A DNA stretch of 64,000 nt from Acidimicrobiales bacterium. GTDB taxonomy: Bacteria; Actinomycetota; Acidimicrobiia; Acidimicrobiales; Bog-793. A model generated the notes under the pieces. The model worked only from the letters and a program-made list of their open reading frames with translations, had not been told where the DNA came from and did not search any database. The position numbers and the translations under genes are program-made. Each line of letters begins with the position of its first letter. Position 1 is the stretch's first letter. The stretch is taken from the NCBI GenBank assembly GCA_050015255.1, contig JBEKBT010000002.1, positions 13,545 through 77,544 on the forward strand, given 5' to 3'. Below, in pieces: positions 1,179 to 45,881 of the stretch.

Positions 1179-1239
1179 CCACCTATGAGAGACCCTTCGG
1201 TCCTGGCGCGGAGGGCGAACCAGACAAGGAGGGCGACCG

Positions 1240-1791
1240 TTGACGAAAGTGGAAGCCTCGACGGTGATAGCGGACGTCATGATCGTCACCCCCGACGTCT
1301 TTGGCGACAGCAGGGGCAGGTTCATCGAGACATACCGGCGCAGCTGGTTCCCCCTCGGGCGGGAAATGGTTCAGGGAAATCGCTCGGACCGCCAGCAAGG
1401 GGCGCTCGTCGGGCTTCACTACCACTTTCACCAGGCCGACTACTGGTACGTGACAAGGGGCCGGGCCCGGGTCGTCTTGCACGACCTCCGGATCGGCTCA
1501 CCGACCGACGGTGCGACCGAGATCCTGGAGATCGGTGAGCACGACGATCGTGGGGTGTACATCCCTCCTGGCGTGGGGCACGGCTTCGCCGCAGTCACGG
1601 ACCTGACGCTCACTTACCTCGTGGACGCGTACTACAACCCCGCCGACGAGCTGGGCGTCGCCTGGGACGACCCGGAGCTCGAAGCGGACTGGGGCGTCGC
1701 CGACCCGGTCGTGTCAGCACGGGACCGCGCGAACCCGCGCCGTGCGGAGATCCCGGACCATCTCCGCCCGCGTTACGGCCTGAGAGTCTGA
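1240..1791 (+). CDS. rmlC: dTDP-4-dehydrorhamnose 3,5-epimerase
   Basis: 183 aa with cupin-type RmlC signatures: PDVFGDSRGRFIETY, GLHYHFHQADYWYV, PPGVGHGF. Confidence 0.9.
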   Translation: MTKVEASTVIADVMIVTPDVFGDSRGRFIETYRRSWFPLGREMVQGNRSDRQQGALVGLHYHFHQADYWYVTRGRARVVLHDLRIGSPTDGATEILEIGEHDDRGVYIPPGVGHGFAAVTDLTLTYLVDAYYNPADELGVAWDDPELEADWGVADPVVSARDRANPRRAEIPDHLRPRYGLRV

Positions 1792-1875
1792 GGGACCGTC
1801 TCAGCGCCCGCGGTGCCATGGCCTCGGCCTTCGGCTTGAATGGAGACTAAGTAGCCATTCGAGGAGCTGCGGGTC

Positions 1876-2919
1876 GTGATCGCTGTCGTAATTGTCGTCC
1901 TCGCGGTGCTCGTCATCGCCGCGGTCGTCTGGGCTCGCGTTAGTGCGGCCAGGTCCGAGCACAAGTCGGTCGAGACCTACGAACACGCTCTCGGCGTGCT
2001 CGGAGAGGTCTCGAAACGCACCGAGTCCACCGGGTTCCGCATCCTCCCCCATGAGGAGACGGGCCGGCCCCATGTCGGCAGGCCGATCGACCCGGCAGGC
2101 GGCGAGGCAGCCGAGGGTCGCAAGGAAGGCAGCTCGGGTGGGCAGGGCCCCTTGGTTTCGAGGCGGCTGCCACCGGCTGGCCAGCCGAAGCTCCGGTTCT
2201 CCGGGCCGACGCGCCCGGCGGACCGTTCGCCGGCAGCAAGTGAGGAGGCCGGTGAAGACGCCGACCTGGAAGCCGGAGCGCTGGCGGCGCGAACGGCGAC
2301 TGCCGGTGCTCGTCCTCATCTGCCCTCGCCCCACGGGCAAGCGTCCGGGACGGCCGAGGCGCGCGCTCGTAGCGCGGCCTACAGGTCGACGTTTGAGCGC
2401 CGCCGGCAGGTAATGGCGCGACGGGCCGCGACCGGCGTGGCCGCCGCCGCCGCCGTCGTGGCGGTCGTCGTTGCGGGGCTCTACTTGAGCGGCAGCGGTG
2501 GTACGCCGAGCAGCCGTGGTGGGCATGGCGCAGCGTCCGTGACCGGCACGACCGCGCACCACTCAGGTGGCGGGCGCACCAAGACGACCTCGACCACCAC
2601 GACGAAGTTGCCGACGAGCCTGCGGCCCACCTCTGTGTCGCCGGTCACCTTCACGGTGCCCTCGAGGGAATACACGCTGGCTTTCCAGGCGACGGGGGGA
2701 CGCTGCTGGGTAGGGATCGAGCACACCACGGCGGGCCCGTGGCTCTTCGCCCAGACCCTGGCCGCTGGGCGGTCGGTGACCTTCAAGGGATCGGGCACGC
2801 TCATAGTCAGGCTCGGTGCCCCGCCCTACATAGCTCTGACGGTCAACGGGCTCGCGGCGAAGCTCCCCAGCGGAGTCACGGCGGCCTACAGCGTCGAGCT
2901 CACGCCTGCCTCGGCCTGA
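1876..2919 (+). CDS. membrane protein with RodZ-like C-terminal (DUF4115-type) domain
   Basis: 347 aa. N-terminal TM helix (IAVVIVVLAVLVIAAVVWA), a second TM helix (GVAAAAAVVAVVVAGLYL), a Ser/Thr/Gly linker, and a C-terminal beta domain (YTLAFQATGGRCWVGIEH...VTFKGSGTLIVRLGAPPYIALTVNG). Confidence 0.7.
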   Translation: MIAVVIVVLAVLVIAAVVWARVSAARSEHKSVETYEHALGVLGEVSKRTESTGFRILPHEETGRPHVGRPIDPAGGEAAEGRKEGSSGGQGPLVSRRLPPAGQPKLRFSGPTRPADRSPAASEEAGEDADLEAGALAARTATAGARPHLPSPHGQASGTAEARARSAAYRSTFERRRQVMARRAATGVAAAAAVVAVVVAGLYLSGSGGTPSSRGGHGAASVTGTTAHHSGGGRTKTTSTTTTKLPTSLRPTSVSPVTFTVPSREYTLAFQATGGRCWVGIEHTTAGPWLFAQTLAAGRSVTFKGSGTLIVRLGAPPYIALTVNGLAAKLPSGVTAAYSVELTPASA

Positions 2920-3029
2920 GCCCGCCTCGGCCTCGGCCTGCGCCCGCCTCGGCCTCGGCCTGAGCCCGCCTGGGCCTCGGCCTCGGCCTGCCTGGGCCTC
3001 GGCCTCGGCCTGCAGCTGCCTGGGCCCAG
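2904..3029. repeat. GC-rich hexamer/22-mer tandem array (GCCTCG/GCCTGG units) beginning in the last codons of the RodZ-like gene
   Basis: Read directly: ...gcctgcctcggccTGA gcccgcctcggcctcggcctgc gcccgcctcggcctcggccTGA gcccgcctgggcctcggcctcggcctgc ctgggcctcggcctcggcctgc agctgcctgggcccagg. Confidence 0.9.
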
Positions 3030-3151
3030 GCACCGGTCCCGGTCTGGCTGAGCATTGCGGAGCCCCGCAGCGGCGAACGACGAGTGCGCTCGTCGGCCCC
3101 GTAGTTGTTACTATGTGCGTAGGAGAAACTCTCCCTCGAGAGGAACGCGTT

Positions 3152-4552
3152 ATGGCCATCACGGAGCTCGATCTCGGCAAGTACCAGCTCGGCTGGAGTG
3201 ACGTCGAGGACTACGTCTTCAAGCCGCGCAAGGGACTCTCAGAAGAGATCGTCCGGGAGATGTCGGCCATGAAGGGCGAGCCGAGCTGGATGCTCGAGTT
3301 CCGGCTGGCTTCCCTGCGCCGCTTCGAGCGCAAGCCGATGATGCGCTGGTTTGCGGAAAAGATGCCCGACCTGGACTTTGACGACATCTACTACTACATC
3401 AAGCCCACCGATGCCCAGGTCAACGACTGGGACAAGCTGCCCGAGTCGGTAAAGAGCACCTGGGACAAGCTCGGCATCCCGCAGGCGGAGCGCAAGTACC
3501 TGGCCGGCGTCACGGCTCAGTACGAGTCCGAGGTCGTGTACCACCGCAATCGCGAGGACCTCGAGCACATGGGCGTGCTCTTCACCGACATGGACACCGC
3601 TGTCCGCGAGCATCCTGAGATCGTTCGCAAGTGGTTCGGCAAGATCATCCCTCCCGGTGACAACAAGTTCGCAGCCCTGAACTCGGCCGTCTGGTCGGGG
3701 GGCTCTTTCATATACGTGCCGCCAGGCGTGACCGTCGACATGCCCCTGCAGGCGTACTTCCGCATCAATGCCGAGAACATGGGTCAGTTCGAGCGGACGT
3801 TGATCATCGCCGACGAGGGTGCGCAGGTGCATTACGTCGAGGGTTGCTCGGCGCCCGTCTACTCGTCGGACTCGCTGCACTCGGCCGTCGTCGAACTCGT
3901 GGCGCTCCCGGGCAGCCGTATCACCTACACCACGATCCAGAACTGGTCCACGAACGTCTACAACCTCGTCACCAAGCGGGCTCGGGCCGAGGCCGAGGCC
4001 CACGTCGAGTGGATCGACGGCAACATCGGCTCGCGGCTCACCATGAAGTACCCGTCTGTGTACCTGATGGGGCCCAAGGCTTCTGGTGAGGTCCTCTCCG
4101 TTGCCTACGCGGGGGCGGGTCAGATCCTCGACACCGGAGCAAAGATGTTCCACTGCGCTCCCGAGACGAGCTCGACCATCGTCTCGAAGTCGATCTCGAA
4201 GGACGGCGGCCTTGCCGCCTACCGCGGGAAGGTGCATGTCGACGAAGGTGCCCGTAAGGCGAAGTCATTCGTCCGCTGCGATGCGCTGATCCTCGACGAG
4301 AACTCGATCTCGGAGACCAAGCCGTACATGGAGGTCTCAGAGCGTGATGCCGAGATCGGTCACGAGGCAACCGTGTCCAAGATCGGCGACGACCAGCTCT
4401 TCTACCTGATGAGCCGTGGCCTCAGCGAGACACAGGCAATGGGCATGATCGTGAACGGCTTCATCGAGCCGATCACTCGCACACTGCCGATGGAGTACGC
4501 GGTCGAATGGAGCCGGCTGATCGAGCTCCAGATGGACGGCTCGGTCGGCTGA
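3152..4552 (+). CDS. sufB: Fe-S cluster assembly protein SufB
   Basis: Track ORF 3113..4552. MAITELDLGKYQLGWSD... from ATG 3152 shows full-length SufB-like sequence (FRINAENMGQFERTLIIADEGAQVHYVEGCSAP, FYLMSRGL). A TACTAT -10-like hexamer lies at 3109-3114. Confidence 0.95.
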   Translation: MAITELDLGKYQLGWSDVEDYVFKPRKGLSEEIVREMSAMKGEPSWMLEFRLASLRRFERKPMMRWFAEKMPDLDFDDIYYYIKPTDAQVNDWDKLPESVKSTWDKLGIPQAERKYLAGVTAQYESEVVYHRNREDLEHMGVLFTDMDTAVREHPEIVRKWFGKIIPPGDNKFAALNSAVWSGGSFIYVPPGVTVDMPLQAYFRINAENMGQFERTLIIADEGAQVHYVEGCSAPVYSSDSLHSAVVELVALPGSRITYTTIQNWSTNVYNLVTKRARAEAEAHVEWIDGNIGSRLTMKYPSVYLMGPKASGEVLSVAYAGAGQILDTGAKMFHCAPETSSTIVSKSISKDGGLAAYRGKVHVDEGARKAKSFVRCDALILDENSISETKPYMEVSERDAEIGHEATVSKIGDDQLFYLMSRGLSETQAMGMIVNGFIEPITRTLPMEYAVEWSRLIELQMDGSVG

Positions 4553-39431: not shown

Positions 39432-40544
39432 TCAGCCGGACACGAGCGTCATCGGGTCGACCCAGTCGAGGTCGAGGGCGGACGCGACGGCAGCGTTCGT
39501 GCAGCTTCCGCGCATGGTGTTGAGCCCGCCACGCAGCACCGGATCAGCCGCCATTGCCGCCTCCACGCCGCGCTCGACGAGCTCGACAAGGTAGGGGAAC
39601 GTGGCGTTGGTGAGCGCGTATGTCGAGGTATGAGGCACAGCGGCCGGCATGTTCCCGACTGCGTAATGGAGCACGCCGTGCATGAAGTAGGTCGGGTCCT
39701 CGTGAGTTGTCTCGTGCGTCGTCTCGACGCATCCGCCCTGGTCGACGGCTACGTCGACTATCACTGCCCCGGGTCTCATGGCCGCGACCATCTCCTCGGT
39801 TATGACGACCGGCGCCCTTCCCCCCGCCACGAGGACAGCACCGATGACGAGATCGGCTTCGGATATGGCCCGCTCTATCGACCCACGGTTCGACGCCAAG
39901 GTCATGATCCGGCCCTGGTGGATCTGGTCGACCCAGCGCAGGCGGGCGATGTCCCGGTCCAGCAGCAGGACTTCGGCCTCCATGCCCTGGGCTATCCACG
40001 CCGCGCTCCAGCCCACGTTGCCGGCACCGATCACCACGACGCGAGCCGGCCTCACGCCCGGGACGCCGCCGAGCAGGATGCCTCGCGTCCCGTGTGAGGC
40101 CTCGAGGAAGTGGGCCCCGACCTGGGTCGCTATCCGTCCCGCGACTTCGCTCATCGGCGCCAGGAGGGGAAGTTCGCCTGAGGGGAGTTGAACGGTCTCG
40201 TATGCGACCCCGGTCGTCTCGGACTGGAGCAGCGCCTTGGCTACACCTGGGTAGGCGGCGAGGTGGAGATATGTGAAGAGCACGAGGCCGGGCCTCAGGT
40301 ACGAGAGCTCCGACTCCTGTGGCTCTTTCACCTTGCACACGAGGTCAGCTGACCACGCAGTCGGCGCGTCGACCAGAGTTGCTCCTGCTGCTGTGAACTC
40401 AGCATCGCTCAGCGACGACCCGGTGCCGGCCCCCGTCTCGACGAGGACCCGGTGTCCGTGCGCTGTCAGCTCACGGACTCCGTCGGGGGTGATGGCAACC
40501 CGGCACTCCGCGACCTTGACCTCCGCGGGCACCCCGACGATCAT
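39432..40544 (-). CDS. ald: alanine dehydrogenase
   Basis: 370 aa. MIVGVPAEVKVAECRVAITPDGVRELTAHGHRVLVETGAG and the NAD site VVVIGAGNVGWSAA. Confidence 0.95.
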   Translation of the reverse strand: MIVGVPAEVKVAECRVAITPDGVRELTAHGHRVLVETGAGTGSSLSDAEFTAAGATLVDAPTAWSADLVCKVKEPQESELSYLRPGLVLFTYLHLAAYPGVAKALLQSETTGVAYETVQLPSGELPLLAPMSEVAGRIATQVGAHFLEASHGTRGILLGGVPGVRPARVVVIGAGNVGWSAAWIAQGMEAEVLLLDRDIARLRWVDQIHQGRIMTLASNRGSIERAISEADLVIGAVLVAGGRAPVVITEEMVAAMRPGAVIVDVAVDQGGCVETTHETTHEDPTYFMHGVLHYAVGNMPAAVPHTSTYALTNATFPYLVELVERGVEAAMAADPVLRGGLNTMRGSCTNAAVASALDLDWVDPMTLVSG

Positions 40545-40839
40545 GGCTGCGTCTCGAGGTGCTCATGCCGCGCGGCTTTGGCTGTTTCAGTCATCATGGC
40601 TGCCACCTTCTGGTTCCCCAACCGCTCGATTGTCGTGCACGCGCCAGCAACGCTAATGGCTGTCGCCCAGGTTCGCGAAAAGCTGGCCGGTGCGCCCTAT
40701 CGGCGACAGATCCGTCGCTCGTGGCGGGGCGCGACGACCGGTCCGCGCGGGCGCCGCGCGTTTGAGGGACCGATCCCGTGTCATCCTGGGTGTCGTGCCA
40801 CTGAACCCGCTCCAGGGCTGACCGACGGCCGAGAGCCCT

Positions 40840-42285
40840 GTGTACCATCGCGGCGTGCCGCTGATCGGAGGTGTCGCGGCGCTCGTTGGTAGGCGGGTCG
40901 CGATGTTCGGGGCAGGCATGGAAGGCCAGTGCTTCGCCCGGCAGTTCGGTCCGAGCTGCTCCGAGCTCGTCGTCCTCGACGACCTTGCCGGTGATCCTGC
41001 CGCTGCGGGCGGCCCACGCCGACCTGTCGAAGCCGAGCTGGGCGGCCTCGATGTGCACTCGCCCTCGCTCCTAGAAGAGCGCCGTTTCGATTTCGTCATT
41101 CACTCGCCCGGGGTATCGCGCTACGACGAGCGTCTTGTGGGCGCGGCCCGGCTGGGTGCCGTGGTGACGACCCCGACCGCCCTCTTCATGGAGGACTTCT
41201 CGGACCGGCGGGTCGTGGCGGTGACCGGGTCCAAGGGAAAGACGACGACCGCGATGCTCACGGCGGCCGCTATTCGTGCCTGTGGGCTGGACGTCGCGCT
41301 TGCTGGCAACATCGGACGTCCTTTGACGGAGCTGTACGACGATGCCGCCCATGACGTGTTCGTGGTCGAGCTCTCGAGCTACCAGACGGCCGAGCTCACG
41401 ACCTCGCCCACCGTCGGCGTCCTCACCTTGCTCGCACCCGACCATCTCGAGTGGCACCGGAGCCTCGAGAATTACTACGAGGACAAGTTGCGCCTGTTCT
41501 CGCATCGCAACGGGATCCCCGTCGTCGTCAACGGATGCTGCGAAGAGGCGGTCGCCCGGAGCTCGCAACTGGCCGGCAGAGTCCTCTATGGCGAGGGCGG
41601 CCCGGTGCGCCTCGAAGAGGCCAAGGTCGTCGCCTCCGATCTCGGGCCCCTTGACCTCGAGGGATTTCAGCTGCTGGGGGAGCACAACCTGCTCAACGCC
41701 TGCGGTGCGGTCACGGCCGGTCTCCTGCTCACCGGCGAGTTGCCCGACAAGAAGCGGCTGGAGTACGAGCTGTCGGCAGTCACGGCACCGAGATCGAGGT
41801 TGGAGCCGATCGGGGTCGTCGACGGCGTCAGCTACATCGACGACGCGCTCGCCAGCAATCCCGAGGGGACGCTTGCCGCGCTCAAGGTCTTTGCCGGAAG
41901 ACAGGTGGCGCTGATCGTCGGCGGTCACGACCGAGGCGTCGACTACACGCCGCTCGCCCGAGCGATCCAGTCAAGCTCGCCGCAACCGTTTGTCTTTTGG
42001 ATCGGAGAAGCCGGAGCGGCCATCGCCACCGCCCTCGGGCGCATCTCCAGCACCGCCCAACGGCGGCCCGCACCTTCGCTCGAGGCGGCCGTCGCCCTCG
42101 CCGCCTCCTGTCCGGAGATCACAGCGGTGCTTTTCTCGCCGGCGGCGCCGACCCCGCATGACGAGGGGACCTACCTCGACCGCAGCCGGCGTTTCAGGCA
42201 CGTCGTCGGGCTCGAGCACGCTCTTGGGGCCGAGCGCGCCGTCAAGGCCGAGCATGGCGAACGGGGACGTCGTGACGGCGCCTGA
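40840..42285 (+). CDS. Mur ligase family protein, MurD-like (candidate MurD2)
   Basis: 481 aa. N-terminal Rossmann segment RRVAMFGAGMEGQCFA, HSPGV, the ATP site VAVTGSKGKTTTAMLTA, ELSSYQ, LAPDHLEWH. Located outside any dcw-type context and overlapping the next gene. Confidence 0.8.
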   Translation: MYHRGVPLIGGVAALVGRRVAMFGAGMEGQCFARQFGPSCSELVVLDDLAGDPAAAGGPRRPVEAELGGLDVHSPSLLEERRFDFVIHSPGVSRYDERLVGAARLGAVVTTPTALFMEDFSDRRVVAVTGSKGKTTTAMLTAAAIRACGLDVALAGNIGRPLTELYDDAAHDVFVVELSSYQTAELTTSPTVGVLTLLAPDHLEWHRSLENYYEDKLRLFSHRNGIPVVVNGCCEEAVARSSQLAGRVLYGEGGPVRLEEAKVVASDLGPLDLEGFQLLGEHNLLNACGAVTAGLLLTGELPDKKRLEYELSAVTAPRSRLEPIGVVDGVSYIDDALASNPEGTLAALKVFAGRQVALIVGGHDRGVDYTPLARAIQSSSPQPFVFWIGEAGAAIATALGRISSTAQRRPAPSLEAAVALAASCPEITAVLFSPAAPTPHDEGTYLDRSRRFRHVVGLEHALGAERAVKAEHGERGRRDGA

Positions 42286-43696
42286 GCTGGAGAACGTCGA
42301 GACGTTCAGGATCGTCAGCTTCGACTTCGACCCTGCGAAGAACACGGCCCGCTTCGACTACGCCTTCGACGACACCCACAGCTTTCGCGAGACCGTCGAG
42401 CTAGGTGGGCCGCCGCTCGGGTCGCGTTCGGGGAACGGCATCGAGCGCGCGCTGCGGCTCGTGCATCTTGCCGCCGGTGTCAGCTACTACAAGGCGGCGG
42501 CCCCGGAGAGGATCCTCGTCGAGACGGGGCCGCTCAGCCGGGCTGAGGCAGGGCTCGTCCACGACCTGTACGACAAGGGCCTGCGCGAGTTCGCGGTGGC
42601 CAACCAGCTGCAGGTGCCGGTTGATTTCGAGTTGAAAGTTGAGCAAGAGCGCGGACATCCGCCCGGCGGGGTGGCTGCCGGCGTGCCCACAGGGACTGGG
42701 GACGCCGCAGAGCAGGTTCGCGATGCCCCGCGACCTGGGATCGCGGTACCCATCGGCGGGGGGAAGGACTCGATCGTGCTGGTGGAAGCCCTGAAGGCCG
42801 CGGGCCCGCCGGAGGATGTCCCGACCTGGCTGGTGGCGATCAACAAGCGTCCCGCCATGGAGCGCATCGCTGATGTCGCAGGGTTGCCGTTCGCCTCCAT
42901 CACGCGAACCATCTCGCCCCGGTTGCTGGAGCTCAACTCGGCCGGGGCGCTGAACGGTCACGTGCCGATAACCGCCATCGTGTCGCTCATCGCCGTGGCG
43001 GCGGGGTACGTCTATGGCTATGACACGACGCTCATGGCGCTCGAGCGCTCGGCCGACGAGGCCACCGCGCTCATCGACGACGTTGCCGTCAACCACCAAT
43101 GGAGCAAGAGCACAGAGTGCGAGCTCGGGTTGCGCTCTGTCATCCGAGAATCGGTCTCCAGCTCGATCGAGTACGGCTCCGGGCTGCGCTCGTGCGGCGA
43201 GCTCGAGATCGCGAGGTGGTTCGCGGACCTGCCCGCCTACCACGCCGGTTTTCTCAGCTGCAATCAGGCTTACCGACCCGGCGCTCGTTTTGACGCTTGG
43301 TGCGGGCAGTGCCCGAAGTGCCGGTTCGTGTTCTTGGTGCTGGCGCCGTTTCTCGAGCCCGATCGCTTGGAGGCCATCTTCGGCCGCAACCTCTTGGACG
43401 ACCCCGAGCAAGTCGAGGGCTTCTGGGACCTGTGTGCCGCCGGGCGCAAGCCCTACGAGTGTGTCGGCGAGCAGCGCGAGTCGTTCCTCGCCTTCTTGCT
43501 CCTGCTCGAGCGCCCGAGTTGGCACGACCGCGCCGTCGTGGTGGCGCTCCGGCCCGAGCTCGAAGCCCGTCGTGGCCTCGTCTCCACCGATCTCGAGGGC
43601 GGTGTCCCGGTGATCGAGAGCGCATCGGCCACTCGCGAGCGCGTCGTGAGGCTGGTCACTCAGGCGCTCACCCGAGATCGCAGGCCAACCCGATGA
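42254..43696 (+). CDS. PP-loop (adenine-nucleotide alpha-hydrolase-like) protein, candidate MurL-type epimerase
   Basis: In frame within track ORF 41990..43696. ATG 42254 overlaps the MurD-like 3' end by 32 nt. GIAVPIGGGKDSIVLVEAL matches the SGGxDS PP-loop. C-terminal Cys motif WCGQCPKCRF. The functional assignment is inferential. Confidence 0.6.
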   Translation: MANGDVVTAPELENVETFRIVSFDFDPAKNTARFDYAFDDTHSFRETVELGGPPLGSRSGNGIERALRLVHLAAGVSYYKAAAPERILVETGPLSRAEAGLVHDLYDKGLREFAVANQLQVPVDFELKVEQERGHPPGGVAAGVPTGTGDAAEQVRDAPRPGIAVPIGGGKDSIVLVEALKAAGPPEDVPTWLVAINKRPAMERIADVAGLPFASITRTISPRLLELNSAGALNGHVPITAIVSLIAVAAGYVYGYDTTLMALERSADEATALIDDVAVNHQWSKSTECELGLRSVIRESVSSSIEYGSGLRSCGELEIARWFADLPAYHAGFLSCNQAYRPGARFDAWCGQCPKCRFVFLVLAPFLEPDRLEAIFGRNLLDDPEQVEGFWDLCAAGRKPYECVGEQRESFLAFLLLLERPSWHDRAVVVALRPELEARRGLVSTDLEGGVPVIESASATRERVVRLVTQALTRDRRPTR

Positions 43697-43820: not shown

Positions 43821-45881
43821 ATGATCCTCGAATCCATCAATTCACCCTCCGATCTCAAGGCCCTATCGCTTGCTGAGTGCGACCAGCTCGCGGGAGAGAT
43901 CCGCGACTTCATAGTGGAGACCGTCTCACGCACCGGTGGCCACCTCGGCTCCAACCTCGGTGTCGTCGAACTCACGCTCGCCCTGCACCGCGTCTTCAAC
44001 TCCCCTGATGACATCTTCCTGTTCGATACCGGGCACCAGGCTTACATTCACAAGCTCGTGACCGGCCGCCGTGACGCGTTCACCCAGCTCAAGCAGCAAG
44101 GTGGGCTTTCCGGGTACCCGTCGAGGGCCGAATCGCTTCATGACTGGGTCGAGAACTCCCATGCTTCCGCGGGGCTCAGCTACGCCCACGGCATCGCCAC
44201 GGCCCTTCGCCTCGAGGGCAGGACCGATCCCGAAGCCGGTGGTCGTTTCGTGGTCGCGGTGGTCGGCGACGGCGCTCTTACGGGCGGGATGGCATATGAG
44301 GCGCTCAACAACCTCGGCCATTCGGGCGCCCGGGTGCTCATCGTGCTGAACGACAACGGCAGGAGCTACGCACCGACGGTCTCGAAACTGTCGGTCTCGC
44401 TCACCCAACTGCGGCTCGACCCGCGCTATCTCCAGGTCCGTGAACGAGTCCGTCACTTGGTCGAGGACCTGCCGGGCGGCGTGTCCTCCCTCGCCTTCAC
44501 ATCGTTCCATGGGCTCAGCGCGGCCGTGCGCGAGGTCGTCGAGCCGCGCATGTTCTTCGAGGCGCTCGGCATCCGTTACACGGGACCCATCGACGGGCAC
44601 GACATCGGCGGGCTCGAGCAGTCCCTTCGCCGGGCCGCGAGCTGGAACGGCCCGATCGTGCTTCATGTCGTGACGACCAAGGGGAAGGGCTACGCCCCGG
44701 CAGAGGCCGACGACATCGCCTGCCTCCACGACATGAAGGCTTCGACCTCGCCGGTACCGGCGAGCCGCCCCGGCGGGCGCGGGCCGGCACGCCCCGGGTC
44801 TCTGGTGAGCGCTTCGACCGACGACGGCGGATTGCCAGGGCCACTTGGTGCCGGGGAGAGCTACTCGGAGGTCTTTTCCGCGGCGCTCGTGGATCTGGCG
44901 GCCAAGGACGAGCGCATCGTGGCGATCACGGCCGCCATGCCCGGCCCGACAGGGCTGCTGGCGTTCCAGGACCACTACCCTGAGCGTTTCGTAGACGTCG
45001 GGATCGCCGAGCAGCACGCCCTCACGGCGGCGGCGGGGATGGCGATGAGCGGCTTGCGCCCCGTCGTGGCGATCTATTCGACGTTCCTCGCCAGAGCGGT
45101 GGACCAGTGGAACCTCGACGTCGGCCTTCACAACCTGCCGGTCGTGATCTGTGCCGGCCGGGCTGGGGTCACCGGGGATGACGGGCCGAGCCACCACGGT
45201 ATCTACGATCTCGTGCAAGCGCTCCAGATACCGGGCTGCGCGATCTTCTGCCCCGCTGAGACCGCGGAGATAGCCCCGATGCTTGCCGAAGCCTTGAAGC
45301 TCCCCGGGCCATCGTTGATCCGGTACCCGAAGACTCCCTCGCCGGGTCCGCTCGCCAAGCCGGGGACCGGTCTCAAGGCGCGCCGGTTGAGAACCGGGAC
45401 CGGAGAGGTCGTCCTCGTTGGCATCGGCAAGATGACCCGCGCGGTGCTGGTCGCGGCGGCGGAGCTCTTCAGCGACGGCATCGAGACCGACGTCTTCGAC
45501 GCCCGGGTCATCCGCCCTGCCGACCCCGAGCTGCTGGAGGCGATCGCGCGCTCGAGGCTGGTGGTGACCGCCGAGGACGGGCTGGCACATGGTGGCGCCG
45601 GCTCGTACCTGCTGCGCGAGGCCGACCGGCTGGCCGACGCCGGTGGGCTTCCCGGTCCCCGTCAGATGGTGCTCGGCGTCCCGACCGAATACTTTCAGCA
45701 CGCCAAGCCCGACGCGATCCTTTCCCGGCTCGGGCTGGACGGCGCCGGCATCGCGGACGCTACGCGAAGAGCGCTTGCGAGGCGCCGCCGGATCGAACGG
45801 GCGCAACAGGCCGAGCAACTGGATCGCCCCGAACAGCAAGGCCTTGCCGGGCAACGGCACCCGCCCGGTCAGAACCGCTGA
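43821..45881 (+). CDS. dxs: 1-deoxy-D-xylulose-5-phosphate synthase
   Basis: 686 aa. MILESINSPSDLKALS, TGGHLGSNLGVVELTLALHRVF, FDTGHQAYIHKLVTGR, GDGALTGGMAYEALN, IAEQHA. Has a Pro/Gly/Ser-rich linker insertion and a basic C-terminal tail. Confidence 0.95.
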   Translation: MILESINSPSDLKALSLAECDQLAGEIRDFIVETVSRTGGHLGSNLGVVELTLALHRVFNSPDDIFLFDTGHQAYIHKLVTGRRDAFTQLKQQGGLSGYPSRAESLHDWVENSHASAGLSYAHGIATALRLEGRTDPEAGGRFVVAVVGDGALTGGMAYEALNNLGHSGARVLIVLNDNGRSYAPTVSKLSVSLTQLRLDPRYLQVRERVRHLVEDLPGGVSSLAFTSFHGLSAAVREVVEPRMFFEALGIRYTGPIDGHDIGGLEQSLRRAASWNGPIVLHVVTTKGKGYAPAEADDIACLHDMKASTSPVPASRPGGRGPARPGSLVSASTDDGGLPGPLGAGESYSEVFSAALVDLAAKDERIVAITAAMPGPTGLLAFQDHYPERFVDVGIAEQHALTAAAGMAMSGLRPVVAIYSTFLARAVDQWNLDVGLHNLPVVICAGRAGVTGDDGPSHHGIYDLVQALQIPGCAIFCPAETAEIAPMLAEALKLPGPSLIRYPKTPSPGPLAKPGTGLKARRLRTGTGEVVLVGIGKMTRAVLVAAAELFSDGIETDVFDARVIRPADPELLEAIARSRLVVTAEDGLAHGGAGSYLLREADRLADAGGLPGPRQMVLGVPTEYFQHAKPDAILSRLGLDGAGIADATRRALARRRRIERAQQAEQLDRPEQQGLAGQRHPPGQNR

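Follow-up and report, generated by a model that had tools for sequence, protein, structure and literature searches.

The window analyzed here, a 64,000-nucleotide (nt) stretch of DNA on contig C2 of the genome assembly (G000; 3.39 Mb, 197 contigs, 90.9% complete) of an uncultured peat Acidimicrobiales bacterium, contains two same-strand (+) open reading frames (ORFs) that overlap and together fill positions 40840-43696. ORF A encodes a Mur ligase and ORF B a member of the MurL family. We interpret this pair, with a probability of roughly 85%, as the published alternative route to the D-glutamate (D-Glu) of peptidoglycan, i.e., the MurD2/MurL pathway. The constituent features, with lengths in amino acids (aa), are:

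40840..42285, + strand: ORF A, murD2; 481 aa, GTG start, TGA stop at 42283-42285; matches TIGR01087, Mur_ligase_M, and Mur_ligase_C
42254..43696, + strand: ORF B, murL; 480 aa, ATG start; matches NF041275 (E 5.2e-112)
42254..42285, + strand: 32-nt overlap between the end of murD2 and the start of murL
42707..43369, + strand: central PP-loop ATP-pyrophosphatase-like (QueC-like) domain of MurL, residues 152-372, from the domain model (predicted local distance difference test [pLDDT] 89) and Foldseek
42755..42772, + strand: GGGKDS, a PP-loop-like motif at residues 168-173 that does not vary in alignments A1 and A2, at a strand (163-166)/helix (171-183) junction
43256..43321, + strand: Cys cluster S-C336-N ... 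W-C350-x2-C353-x2-C356 (WCGQCPKC, 349-356), with invariant Cys residues, aligned by hhalign to the QueC profile
43448..43468, + strand: KP-x-EC403VG motif in the C-terminal helical part, with invariant K399, P400, E402, C403, V404, and G405

A sequence-only reading of this DNA had drawn attention to a Mur-ligase ORF with the motifs GSKGKTTT, ELSSYQ, and DHLEWH, situated away from any cell-division (dcw) genes and overlapping by about 32 nt a 480-aa ORF bearing GGGKDS and CGQCPKC, with MurL assigned from gene context and the PP-loop only. These observations hold: all three ligase motifs are present in ORF A, the overlap and the ORF B motifs occur as listed above, the dcw cluster was found on another contig (C10), and the MurL assignment is now backed by full-length homology. 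The overlap is confined to the non-conserved C-terminal tail of MurD2, the TIGR01087 match having stopped at residue 456 of 481; judged from this layout, translation of murD2 and murL is likely coupled through it. A longer, TTG-initiated frame for ORF B (568 aa) was considered improbable, as homologues have lengths of 460-480 aa and their alignment starts near residue 4.

Comparison of ORF B with MurL, the check that the earlier reading had proposed, returned a full-length match to the NCBIfam MurL model NF041275 (E 5.2e-112, 374.6 bits, model positions 5-415 of 447). ORF B shares 40-42% identity with the MurL proteins of Micromonospora, Rhodanobacter, and Dyella, all of which are among the genera listed for the pathway, with that of Micromonospora having been assayed (PMC8788868). 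At least 6552 relatives at E 1e-5 or better were present in the protein database (8000 candidates scored), the nearest (72-79% identity) being from Acidimicrobiales metagenome bins. Searches of ORF B, whole or in three pieces, against a Pfam copy without PF26298 and PF26299 gave no family even at E 10; its homologues carry precomputed assignments to these two families, with PF26299 on all 120 relatives listed and PF26298 also on nearly all. The family-invariant motifs GGGKDS, NGHVP, NHQxSKS, SCN, WCxxCPKC, and KPxECVG are all found in ORF B; they are invariant across an alignment of 24 MurL sequences (A1), with those in the central domain also invariant across 28 sequences from several phyla (A2), and GGGKDS was seen in 79/79 MurL loci inspected. 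Given this invariance in 24 and 28 family members from several phyla, neither GGGKDS nor the Cys cluster can be attributed to chance.

In a scan of one genome per species, MurL relatives were detected in at least 589 genomes. The best 80 of these include Acidimicrobiales, Solirubrobacterales, Micromonospora, Rhodanobacter, Dyella, Frateuria, and Lysobacterales, as well as Alphaproteobacteria, Chloroflexia, Sericytochromatia, and a Peribacteraceae bin; a MurD homologue adjoins MurL in 77 of the 80 loci. With MurL of Xanthomonas oryzae (XOO_1319), ORF B shares full-length homology, the same invariant motifs, an adjoining MurD2-type ligase, and a genome in which no MurI was found. It differs from published MurL proteins in its level of identity (~40% to proteobacterial and Micromonospora members), in a longer low-complexity linker (residues ~130-160, of low pLDDT), and in the position of its gene downstream, not upstream, of that for the ligase. 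Among the relatives, some proteins are labeled "endonuclease domain-containing" (P0028 and P0030, of Acidimicrobiales) or "hypothetical" by NCBI, and "epimerase" by JGI; the endonuclease label on Acidimicrobiales MurL looks like a misannotation that could spread.

ORF A is a complete MurD-family ligase. It scores 233 bits against TIGR01087 (murD), above the 212-bit cut-off, scores far below the respective cut-offs with the MurC, MurE, and MurF models, and matches both Pfam Mur_ligase_M and Mur_ligase_C. By alignment, its catalytic residues are intact (K134, N157, H202, and K216, corresponding to K115, N138, H183, and K198 of Escherichia coli MurD), with K134 in GSKGKTTT, ELSSYQ beginning at E177, and D201/H202 in DHLEWH; residues binding uridine diphosphate-N-acetylmuramoyl-L-alanine (UDP-MurNAc-L-Ala) and adenosine triphosphate (ATP) are likewise conserved. 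Across the order, TIGR01087 scores divide into canonical MurDs at 300-404 bits and a lower group at 221-292 bits, the latter made up of the window's ligase and those of genomes G028, G216, G202, G234, G218, G236, and G233; of these seven relatives, all five tested (G028, G216, G202, G236, and G233) carry MurL. ORF A also scores higher against the ligases linked to MurL in other phyla (150-200 bits) than against the order's canonical MurDs (82-125 bits). In a maximum-likelihood tree of 44 ligases (quick IQ-TREE search, with support from the Shimodaira-Hasegawa-like approximate likelihood ratio test [SH-aLRT] only), 32 ligases adjacent to MurL, drawn from at least six phyla, group in a single clade to the exclusion of the canonical MurDs (SH-aLRT 100, stem length 1.05). 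The window's ligase lies inside this clade with those of Micromonospora and Xanthomonadales and away from the order's canonical MurDs, and within it the nine Acidimicrobiia ligases constitute a subclade (SH-aLRT 100) that is weakly sister to Micromonosporaceae (81). ORF A thus has in common with X. oryzae MurD2 the MurD fold, all catalytic residues, and membership in the same clade (SH-aLRT 100). With the canonical combination of MurD and MurI, as in E. coli and most Acidimicrobiia, it shares the ligase family and the place in the pathway; the canonical MurDs of the order, unlike ORF A, are encoded between mraY and ftsW in genomes with MurI and without MurL.

The window's ligase is the only murD-level match in the assembly, other matches being MurC, MurE, and MurF; a second apparent murD match on C10 (114 bits, in a 780-aa open frame) is MurC. 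On C10, the dcw cluster is contiguous and reads ftsI-murE-mraY-ftsW-murG-murC-murB-ftsQ-ftsZ, with no gap for a murD between mraY and ftsW. In each of the 30 canonical MurD loci retrieved for this order, the genes run murE-mraY-murD-ftsW; a cluster without murF is therefore usual in the order, whereas one without murD is particular to this genome. A second murD, for which the sequence-only reading had advised a check, is accordingly not present in the assembly, and its suggestion that murI may be lacking is in agreement with our searches, which yielded no match to TIGR00067 (MurI) or PF01177 (Asp/Glu racemase) in the 90.9%-complete assembly and did yield matches in most control genomes. Its further option, that of an alternative stem peptide, found no support; the MurE of the genome is of the ordinary meso-diaminopimelate (meso-DAP) type, expecting a D-Glu stem. 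As a separate observation on this cluster (L007, C10:8000-24000), no murF is located between murE and mraY, likewise in all 30 relatives, and the best MurF candidate of the genome (L004, contig C4, 982-2529) scores 207 bits versus a TIGR01143 cut-off of 289.

The same arrangement recurs among relatives. In a class-wide sample of 201 Acidimicrobiia genomes (each at least 90% complete), MurI was detected in 160, and strong MurL in 18 (G000 included), all 18 of which are without MurI; these MurL-strong, MurI-less genomes are those of families f4 (9/9) and f31 (6/6) together with G158, G197, and G000. Four further MurL-positive genomes (G216, G202, G236, and G233) also lack MurI, bringing the count to 22/22. 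Conversely, G223, from the same family as the window's genome but from another genus, encodes a canonical dcw MurD and MurI, and no MurL. A weak partial MurL match in G027 (80 bits), in a genome with MurI, was not counted as MurL. This complementarity recurs in at least nine families, the window's own counted; the genomes being related and not independent, it is to be read as a pattern and not as a statistic.

Several side observations were made in the same sample. Neither MurI nor MurL was found in 23 of the 201 genomes, including G071, G122, and G182, and 12/12 genomes of a ~1.1-Mb lineage (f21/g42); their D-Glu might come from a D-amino-acid transaminase or a divergent racemase. In f31/g57 (genomes of 1.5-1.8 Mb), MurL and MurD2 are fused in a single ORF of 871-913 aa, with MurL N-terminal; given the low guanine-plus-cytosine content of both loci (40-47%), the long fused frame is not a high-GC artefact. 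The two fused loci are:

L147 (G120:C1:148500-155000), 1232-3970, - strand: fused MurL-MurD2
L148 (G041:C3:88500-95500), 1479-4091, - strand: fused MurL-MurD2

Finally, the MurL match of G216 (G216:C109:75860-77182, - strand), at 490 bits the highest of the order, contains one in-frame TGA, which could be a sequencing error, a pseudogene mutation, or a recoded codon.

The MurD2/MurL interpretation put forward in the sequence-only reading is thus supported by the MurL homology, the sole MurD, the gap in dcw, the absence of MurI, the MurL/MurI complementarity among relatives, the ligase clade, and (see below) the predicted fold and the pocket residues shared with other MurL-linked ligases. In the pathway that we propose, the MurD2-type ligase would add L-glutamate (L-Glu), and MurL would then turn the terminal L-Glu into D-Glu in a step consuming one ATP and releasing adenosine monophosphate (AMP). 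MurL would most likely act via its QueC-like PP-loop domain, adenylating the α-carboxylate of the terminal L-Glu; this adenylation would acidify the Cα proton of that residue. The ligation of L-Glu, the unidirectional epimerization with conversion of ATP to AMP, and the adenylation proposal derive from the literature; the chemical steps that follow adenylation we infer. In the window's genome, the pair would have replaced both glutamate racemase and the dcw-cluster murD.

The PP-loop component of this proposal, raised earlier from motifs, can now be examined against a structure model. The full-length AlphaFold2 model of MurL (pLDDT 90.1, predicted template modeling score 0.90) consists of an N-terminal β/α part, a central α/β part with GGGKDS where a strand leads into a helix, and a C-terminal part made of helices. 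In GGGKDS, Gly replaces the first Ser of the SGGxDS loop, with strand-loop-helix placement as in PP-loop enzymes. When the core model (residues 152-372) was compared with the PDB by Foldseek, Bacillus subtilis QueC (3bl5_A) was the top match (E 7.1e-6, probability 1.00, template modeling [TM] scores 0.55/0.61), followed by NcsA, asparagine synthetase, NAD+ synthetase, argininosuccinate synthase, MnmA, LarE, and pantothenate synthetase; nearly all lower matches are PP-loop or related nucleotide-binding α/β enzymes. The full-length model gave nothing at E 1e-3 or better in the same search, with LarE and NAD synthetase at a probability of 0.33 only. Sequence searches of the PDB returned no match with phmmer and only a designed repeat protein (E 0.15) with a profile. 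By hhalign, MurL and the QueC profile (7-cyano-7-deazaguanine synthase) align co-linearly over 180 columns with P 0.049 (score 21.9 versus a column-shuffled null of 16.2 ± 2.0, maximum 22.2, with 1 of 30 shuffles scoring as high), a statistically weak alignment that pairs GGGKDS with SGGLDS, and S-C-N...C-G-x-C-P-K-C with S-C-Y...C-G-x-C-x-x-C. The modeled core thus supports a PP-loop ATP pyrophosphatase fold, which would be compatible with AMP-forming chemistry. PP-loop enzymes activate carboxylates or carbonyl oxygens as adenylates, and for this reason the predicted core fits the adenylation proposal. In the QueC study behind 3BL5, four Cys residues reportedly bind Zn; the MurL Cys cluster is probably a Zn site as well, and C403 would be a candidate catalytic residue, by inference only. 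We found no open paper describing a MurL structure.

For the ligase, stereospecificity is best considered through the residues of the Glu pocket. According to the review literature, D182, K348, A414, and L416 of E. coli MurD correspond to E197, R358, P433, and F435 of X. oryzae MurD2; E197D and R358K each altered the stereospecificity of the latter, the double mutant E197D/R358K switched it fully to D-Glu, and mutations of P433 and F435 left it unchanged, while K319T let E. coli MurD accept L-Glu. Our column mapping is borne out by Rhodanobacter, Dyella, and Lysobacterales, whose ligases read E/R/P/F in the alignment, the residues that the review gives for X. oryzae. The seven E. coli MurD sites D182/K319/T321/K348/A414/S415/L416 are occupied as follows:

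Canonical MurDs of the order: D(N)/K/T/K/A(S)/S/F(Y)
MurL-linked ligases of other phyla: E/I(L)/T/R/P(A)/S/F(Y)
Acidimicrobiia MurL-linked ligases: D/L/S/R/P/T/P

The window's ligase has D201, L337, S339, R365, P437, T438, and P439 at these sites. The D/L/S/R/P/T/P signature is present in 8 of the 9 Acidimicrobiia MurL-linked ligases examined, with Ala at the last site in the ninth, and was seen in no other group; Asp occupies the E197 site in all nine. Arg at K348 and loss of Lys319 are common to all MurL-linked ligases examined, and Pro at A414 to all but one. Like X. oryzae MurD2, the window's ligase thus has Arg at K348/R358 (R365), Pro at A414/P433 (P437), and no Lys at the K319 site; it differs in Ser for Thr at the T321 site, in Thr for Ser at the S415 site, and in P439, which replaces Phe/Tyr at the F435 site. 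Where E. coli MurD has D182, the ligase halves of the fused proteins carry Cys.

Several of these results weigh against the MurD2/MurL assignment and are considered here with the alternatives to which they lend themselves. The MurL score of ORF B is only about half the NF041275 equivalog cut-off (700 bits, set on Xanthomonadales), such that ORF B belongs to the MurL family without reaching the equivalog level that NCBI defines for Xanthomonadales. The fold match of MurL comes from a predicted model, not a solved structure, and the sequence-profile evidence tying MurL to QueC is weak. The ligase has D201, aligned with E. coli D182, where X. oryzae MurD2 has Glu197; in light of the E197D and E197D/R358K mutant effects, strict L-Glu specificity is not assured. 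The genome also encodes three class IV aminotransferases, namely one IlvE, one PabB-PabC fusion, and one untyped protein (L008; 301 aa, G000:C5:16550-20245, 1408-2310, - strand) that could be a D-amino-acid transaminase. It could thus be imagined, though we consider it unlikely, that the ligase is of dual specificity or prefers D-Glu, that D-Glu comes from elsewhere (e.g., from the L008 transaminase), and that MurL corrects stems into which L-Glu has been mistakenly incorporated. Such a scheme would draw on Asp201, on the altered stereospecificity of E197D, and on L008, for which no orthologue above 39% identity was found in five relatives. However, L008 scores far below the cut-offs of the D-amino-acid transaminase models (125 bits versus 320, 96 bits versus 277), as it does with those for branched-chain aminotransferase (152 bits) and PabC (127 bits), and its position between a GlpD-like flavin adenine dinucleotide oxidoreductase and MsrA is uninformative. 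Moreover, Asp in the nine Acidimicrobiia ligases always occurs together with Arg at K348, Pro at A414, and Leu at K319; Cys at the same site in the fused proteins implies that Glu is not required in MurL-linked ligases; and strong-MurL genomes of the class lack MurI, which fits replacement and not proofreading. Glu at the E197 site is the one defining trait of MurD2 that was looked for in the ligase and is absent; this lowers confidence in strict L-Glu specificity, not in membership of the pathway, and the Asp-bearing ligase of the window would probably still be L-Glu-specific. Somewhat short of even odds, the Acidimicrobiia MurL-linked ligases, with their Asp, a swapped Ser/Thr pair, and a Pro in the Glu pocket, may represent a third natural solution to specificity, either selecting L-Glu via other contacts than X. 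oryzae MurD2 or accepting both Glu enantiomers. Were this so, an L-Glu ligase would be marked by loss of Lys319 along with Arg at K348 and Pro at A414, rather than by Glu197; with the predicted QueC-like PP-loop and four-Cys core, it would also provide a structural basis for a MurL mechanism that reviews call unclear.

Incomplete assembly likewise has to be weighed: at 90.9% completeness in 197 contigs, a murI could have been missed for the window's genome taken alone. The pair might then make another product, be it a stem with a different residue at position 2 or a UDP-sugar peptide outside peptidoglycan, with the true MurD and MurI encoded in the unassembled 9%, and the lineage-specific changes in the Glu pocket (S339, T438, and P439) would suit such a role. 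We regard this as very improbable, since the dcw cluster is contiguous with murD missing between mraY and ftsW and no gap there, MurI is also absent from 22/22 MurL-positive genomes (of completeness given as 92-99%), the UDP-MurNAc-L-Ala- and ATP-binding residues of the ligase are conserved, and the meso-DAP-type MurE expects a D-Glu stem. Least probable of all is an unrelated role for ORF B, as an enzyme like QueC or another PP-loop protein (e.g., in nucleoside or cofactor modification) that simply neighbors a Mur ligase. In its favor, no structure matches the MurL core better than QueC, and the Pfam copy searched assigns ORF B to no family; the Pfam QueC model, however, does not match ORF B. 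MurL and QueC are alike in the co-linear order of an SGGxDS-type loop, SC(Y/N), and CGxCxxC, and in converting ATP to AMP through carboxylate activation, as proposed for MurL; they are without significant sequence similarity, QueC lacks the extra N-terminal (~150 aa) and C-terminal (~110 aa) domains of MurL, and the substrates and outcomes differ, i.e., amidation and nitrile formation versus epimerization followed by hydrolysis. Against an unrelated function also stand the full-length match of ORF B to the MurL model (E 5e-112) and the near-constant adjacency of MurL to a MurD homologue, extending to fusion in one Acidimicrobiia family. The MurD2/MurL reading is thus the one that we retain.

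The MurD2/MurL pathway was discovered in X. oryzae (Feng 2017; reviews PMC8788868 and PMC5808125) and has been confirmed for Micromonospora and Salinispora (PMC8788868), with a published distribution of Xanthomonadales, three alphaproteobacterial genera, and four Micromonosporaceae genera (PMC8788868). The reviews mention "low-similarity" MurD2/MurL orthologues elsewhere and describe MurL as an enzyme that "lacks known conserved domains", consumes one ATP with release of AMP, and is likely to adenylate the α-carboxylate. No open paper placing MurD2/MurL in Acidimicrobiia was found. The locus described here is an ordinary new member of this published pathway, with a few lineage-specific details; what it adds is modest, namely the Asp-type pocket, the inverted gene order, a clean loss of murD from dcw, and structural support for a PP-loop core.

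These findings nonetheless bear on how the route is regarded. MurD2/MurL has been promoted as a narrow-spectrum antibiotic target on the view that only a few genera possess it (Xanthomonadales, a few Alphaproteobacteria, and Micromonosporaceae). We see it in Acidimicrobiia, Solirubrobacterales/Thermoleophilia, Chloroflexia, Sericytochromatia, and candidate-phyla bacteria, and with MurL relatives in at least 589 species-level genomes, it is a widespread alternative rather than a rarity. For annotation, a missing murI combined with a missing dcw murD should not be taken for an assembly gap where a MurD2/MurL pair is present, and L-Glu ligases should not be diagnosed by Glu197. The QueC-like fold predicted for MurL points to residues for mutation, specifically the GGGKDS loop, the four clustered Cys residues, and C403.

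Neither neighbor of murD2-murL is a cell-division gene. The surrounding features, whose genes are named from their sequence and not through a family model, are:

39432-40544, - strand: alanine dehydrogenase gene, upstream and divergent
40545..40839, no strand: intergenic region between the alanine dehydrogenase gene and murD2 in the ORF map, presumed to hold the promoter
43821-45881, + strand: dxs, 124 nt downstream of murL

The sole σ70-like consensus match (40516-40544) falls at the edge of this intergenic region, inside the start of the neighboring gene, and is weak evidence for a promoter. Among the 80 MurL loci, murL precedes murD2 in 63 and the two genes are divergent in 11 (Micromonosporaceae), with a single locus in a dcw context, between ftsW and mraY. 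The order murD2-murL-dxs is common to only the window's two nearest relatives (L011, a SPRUCE peat bin, and L012) among these loci.

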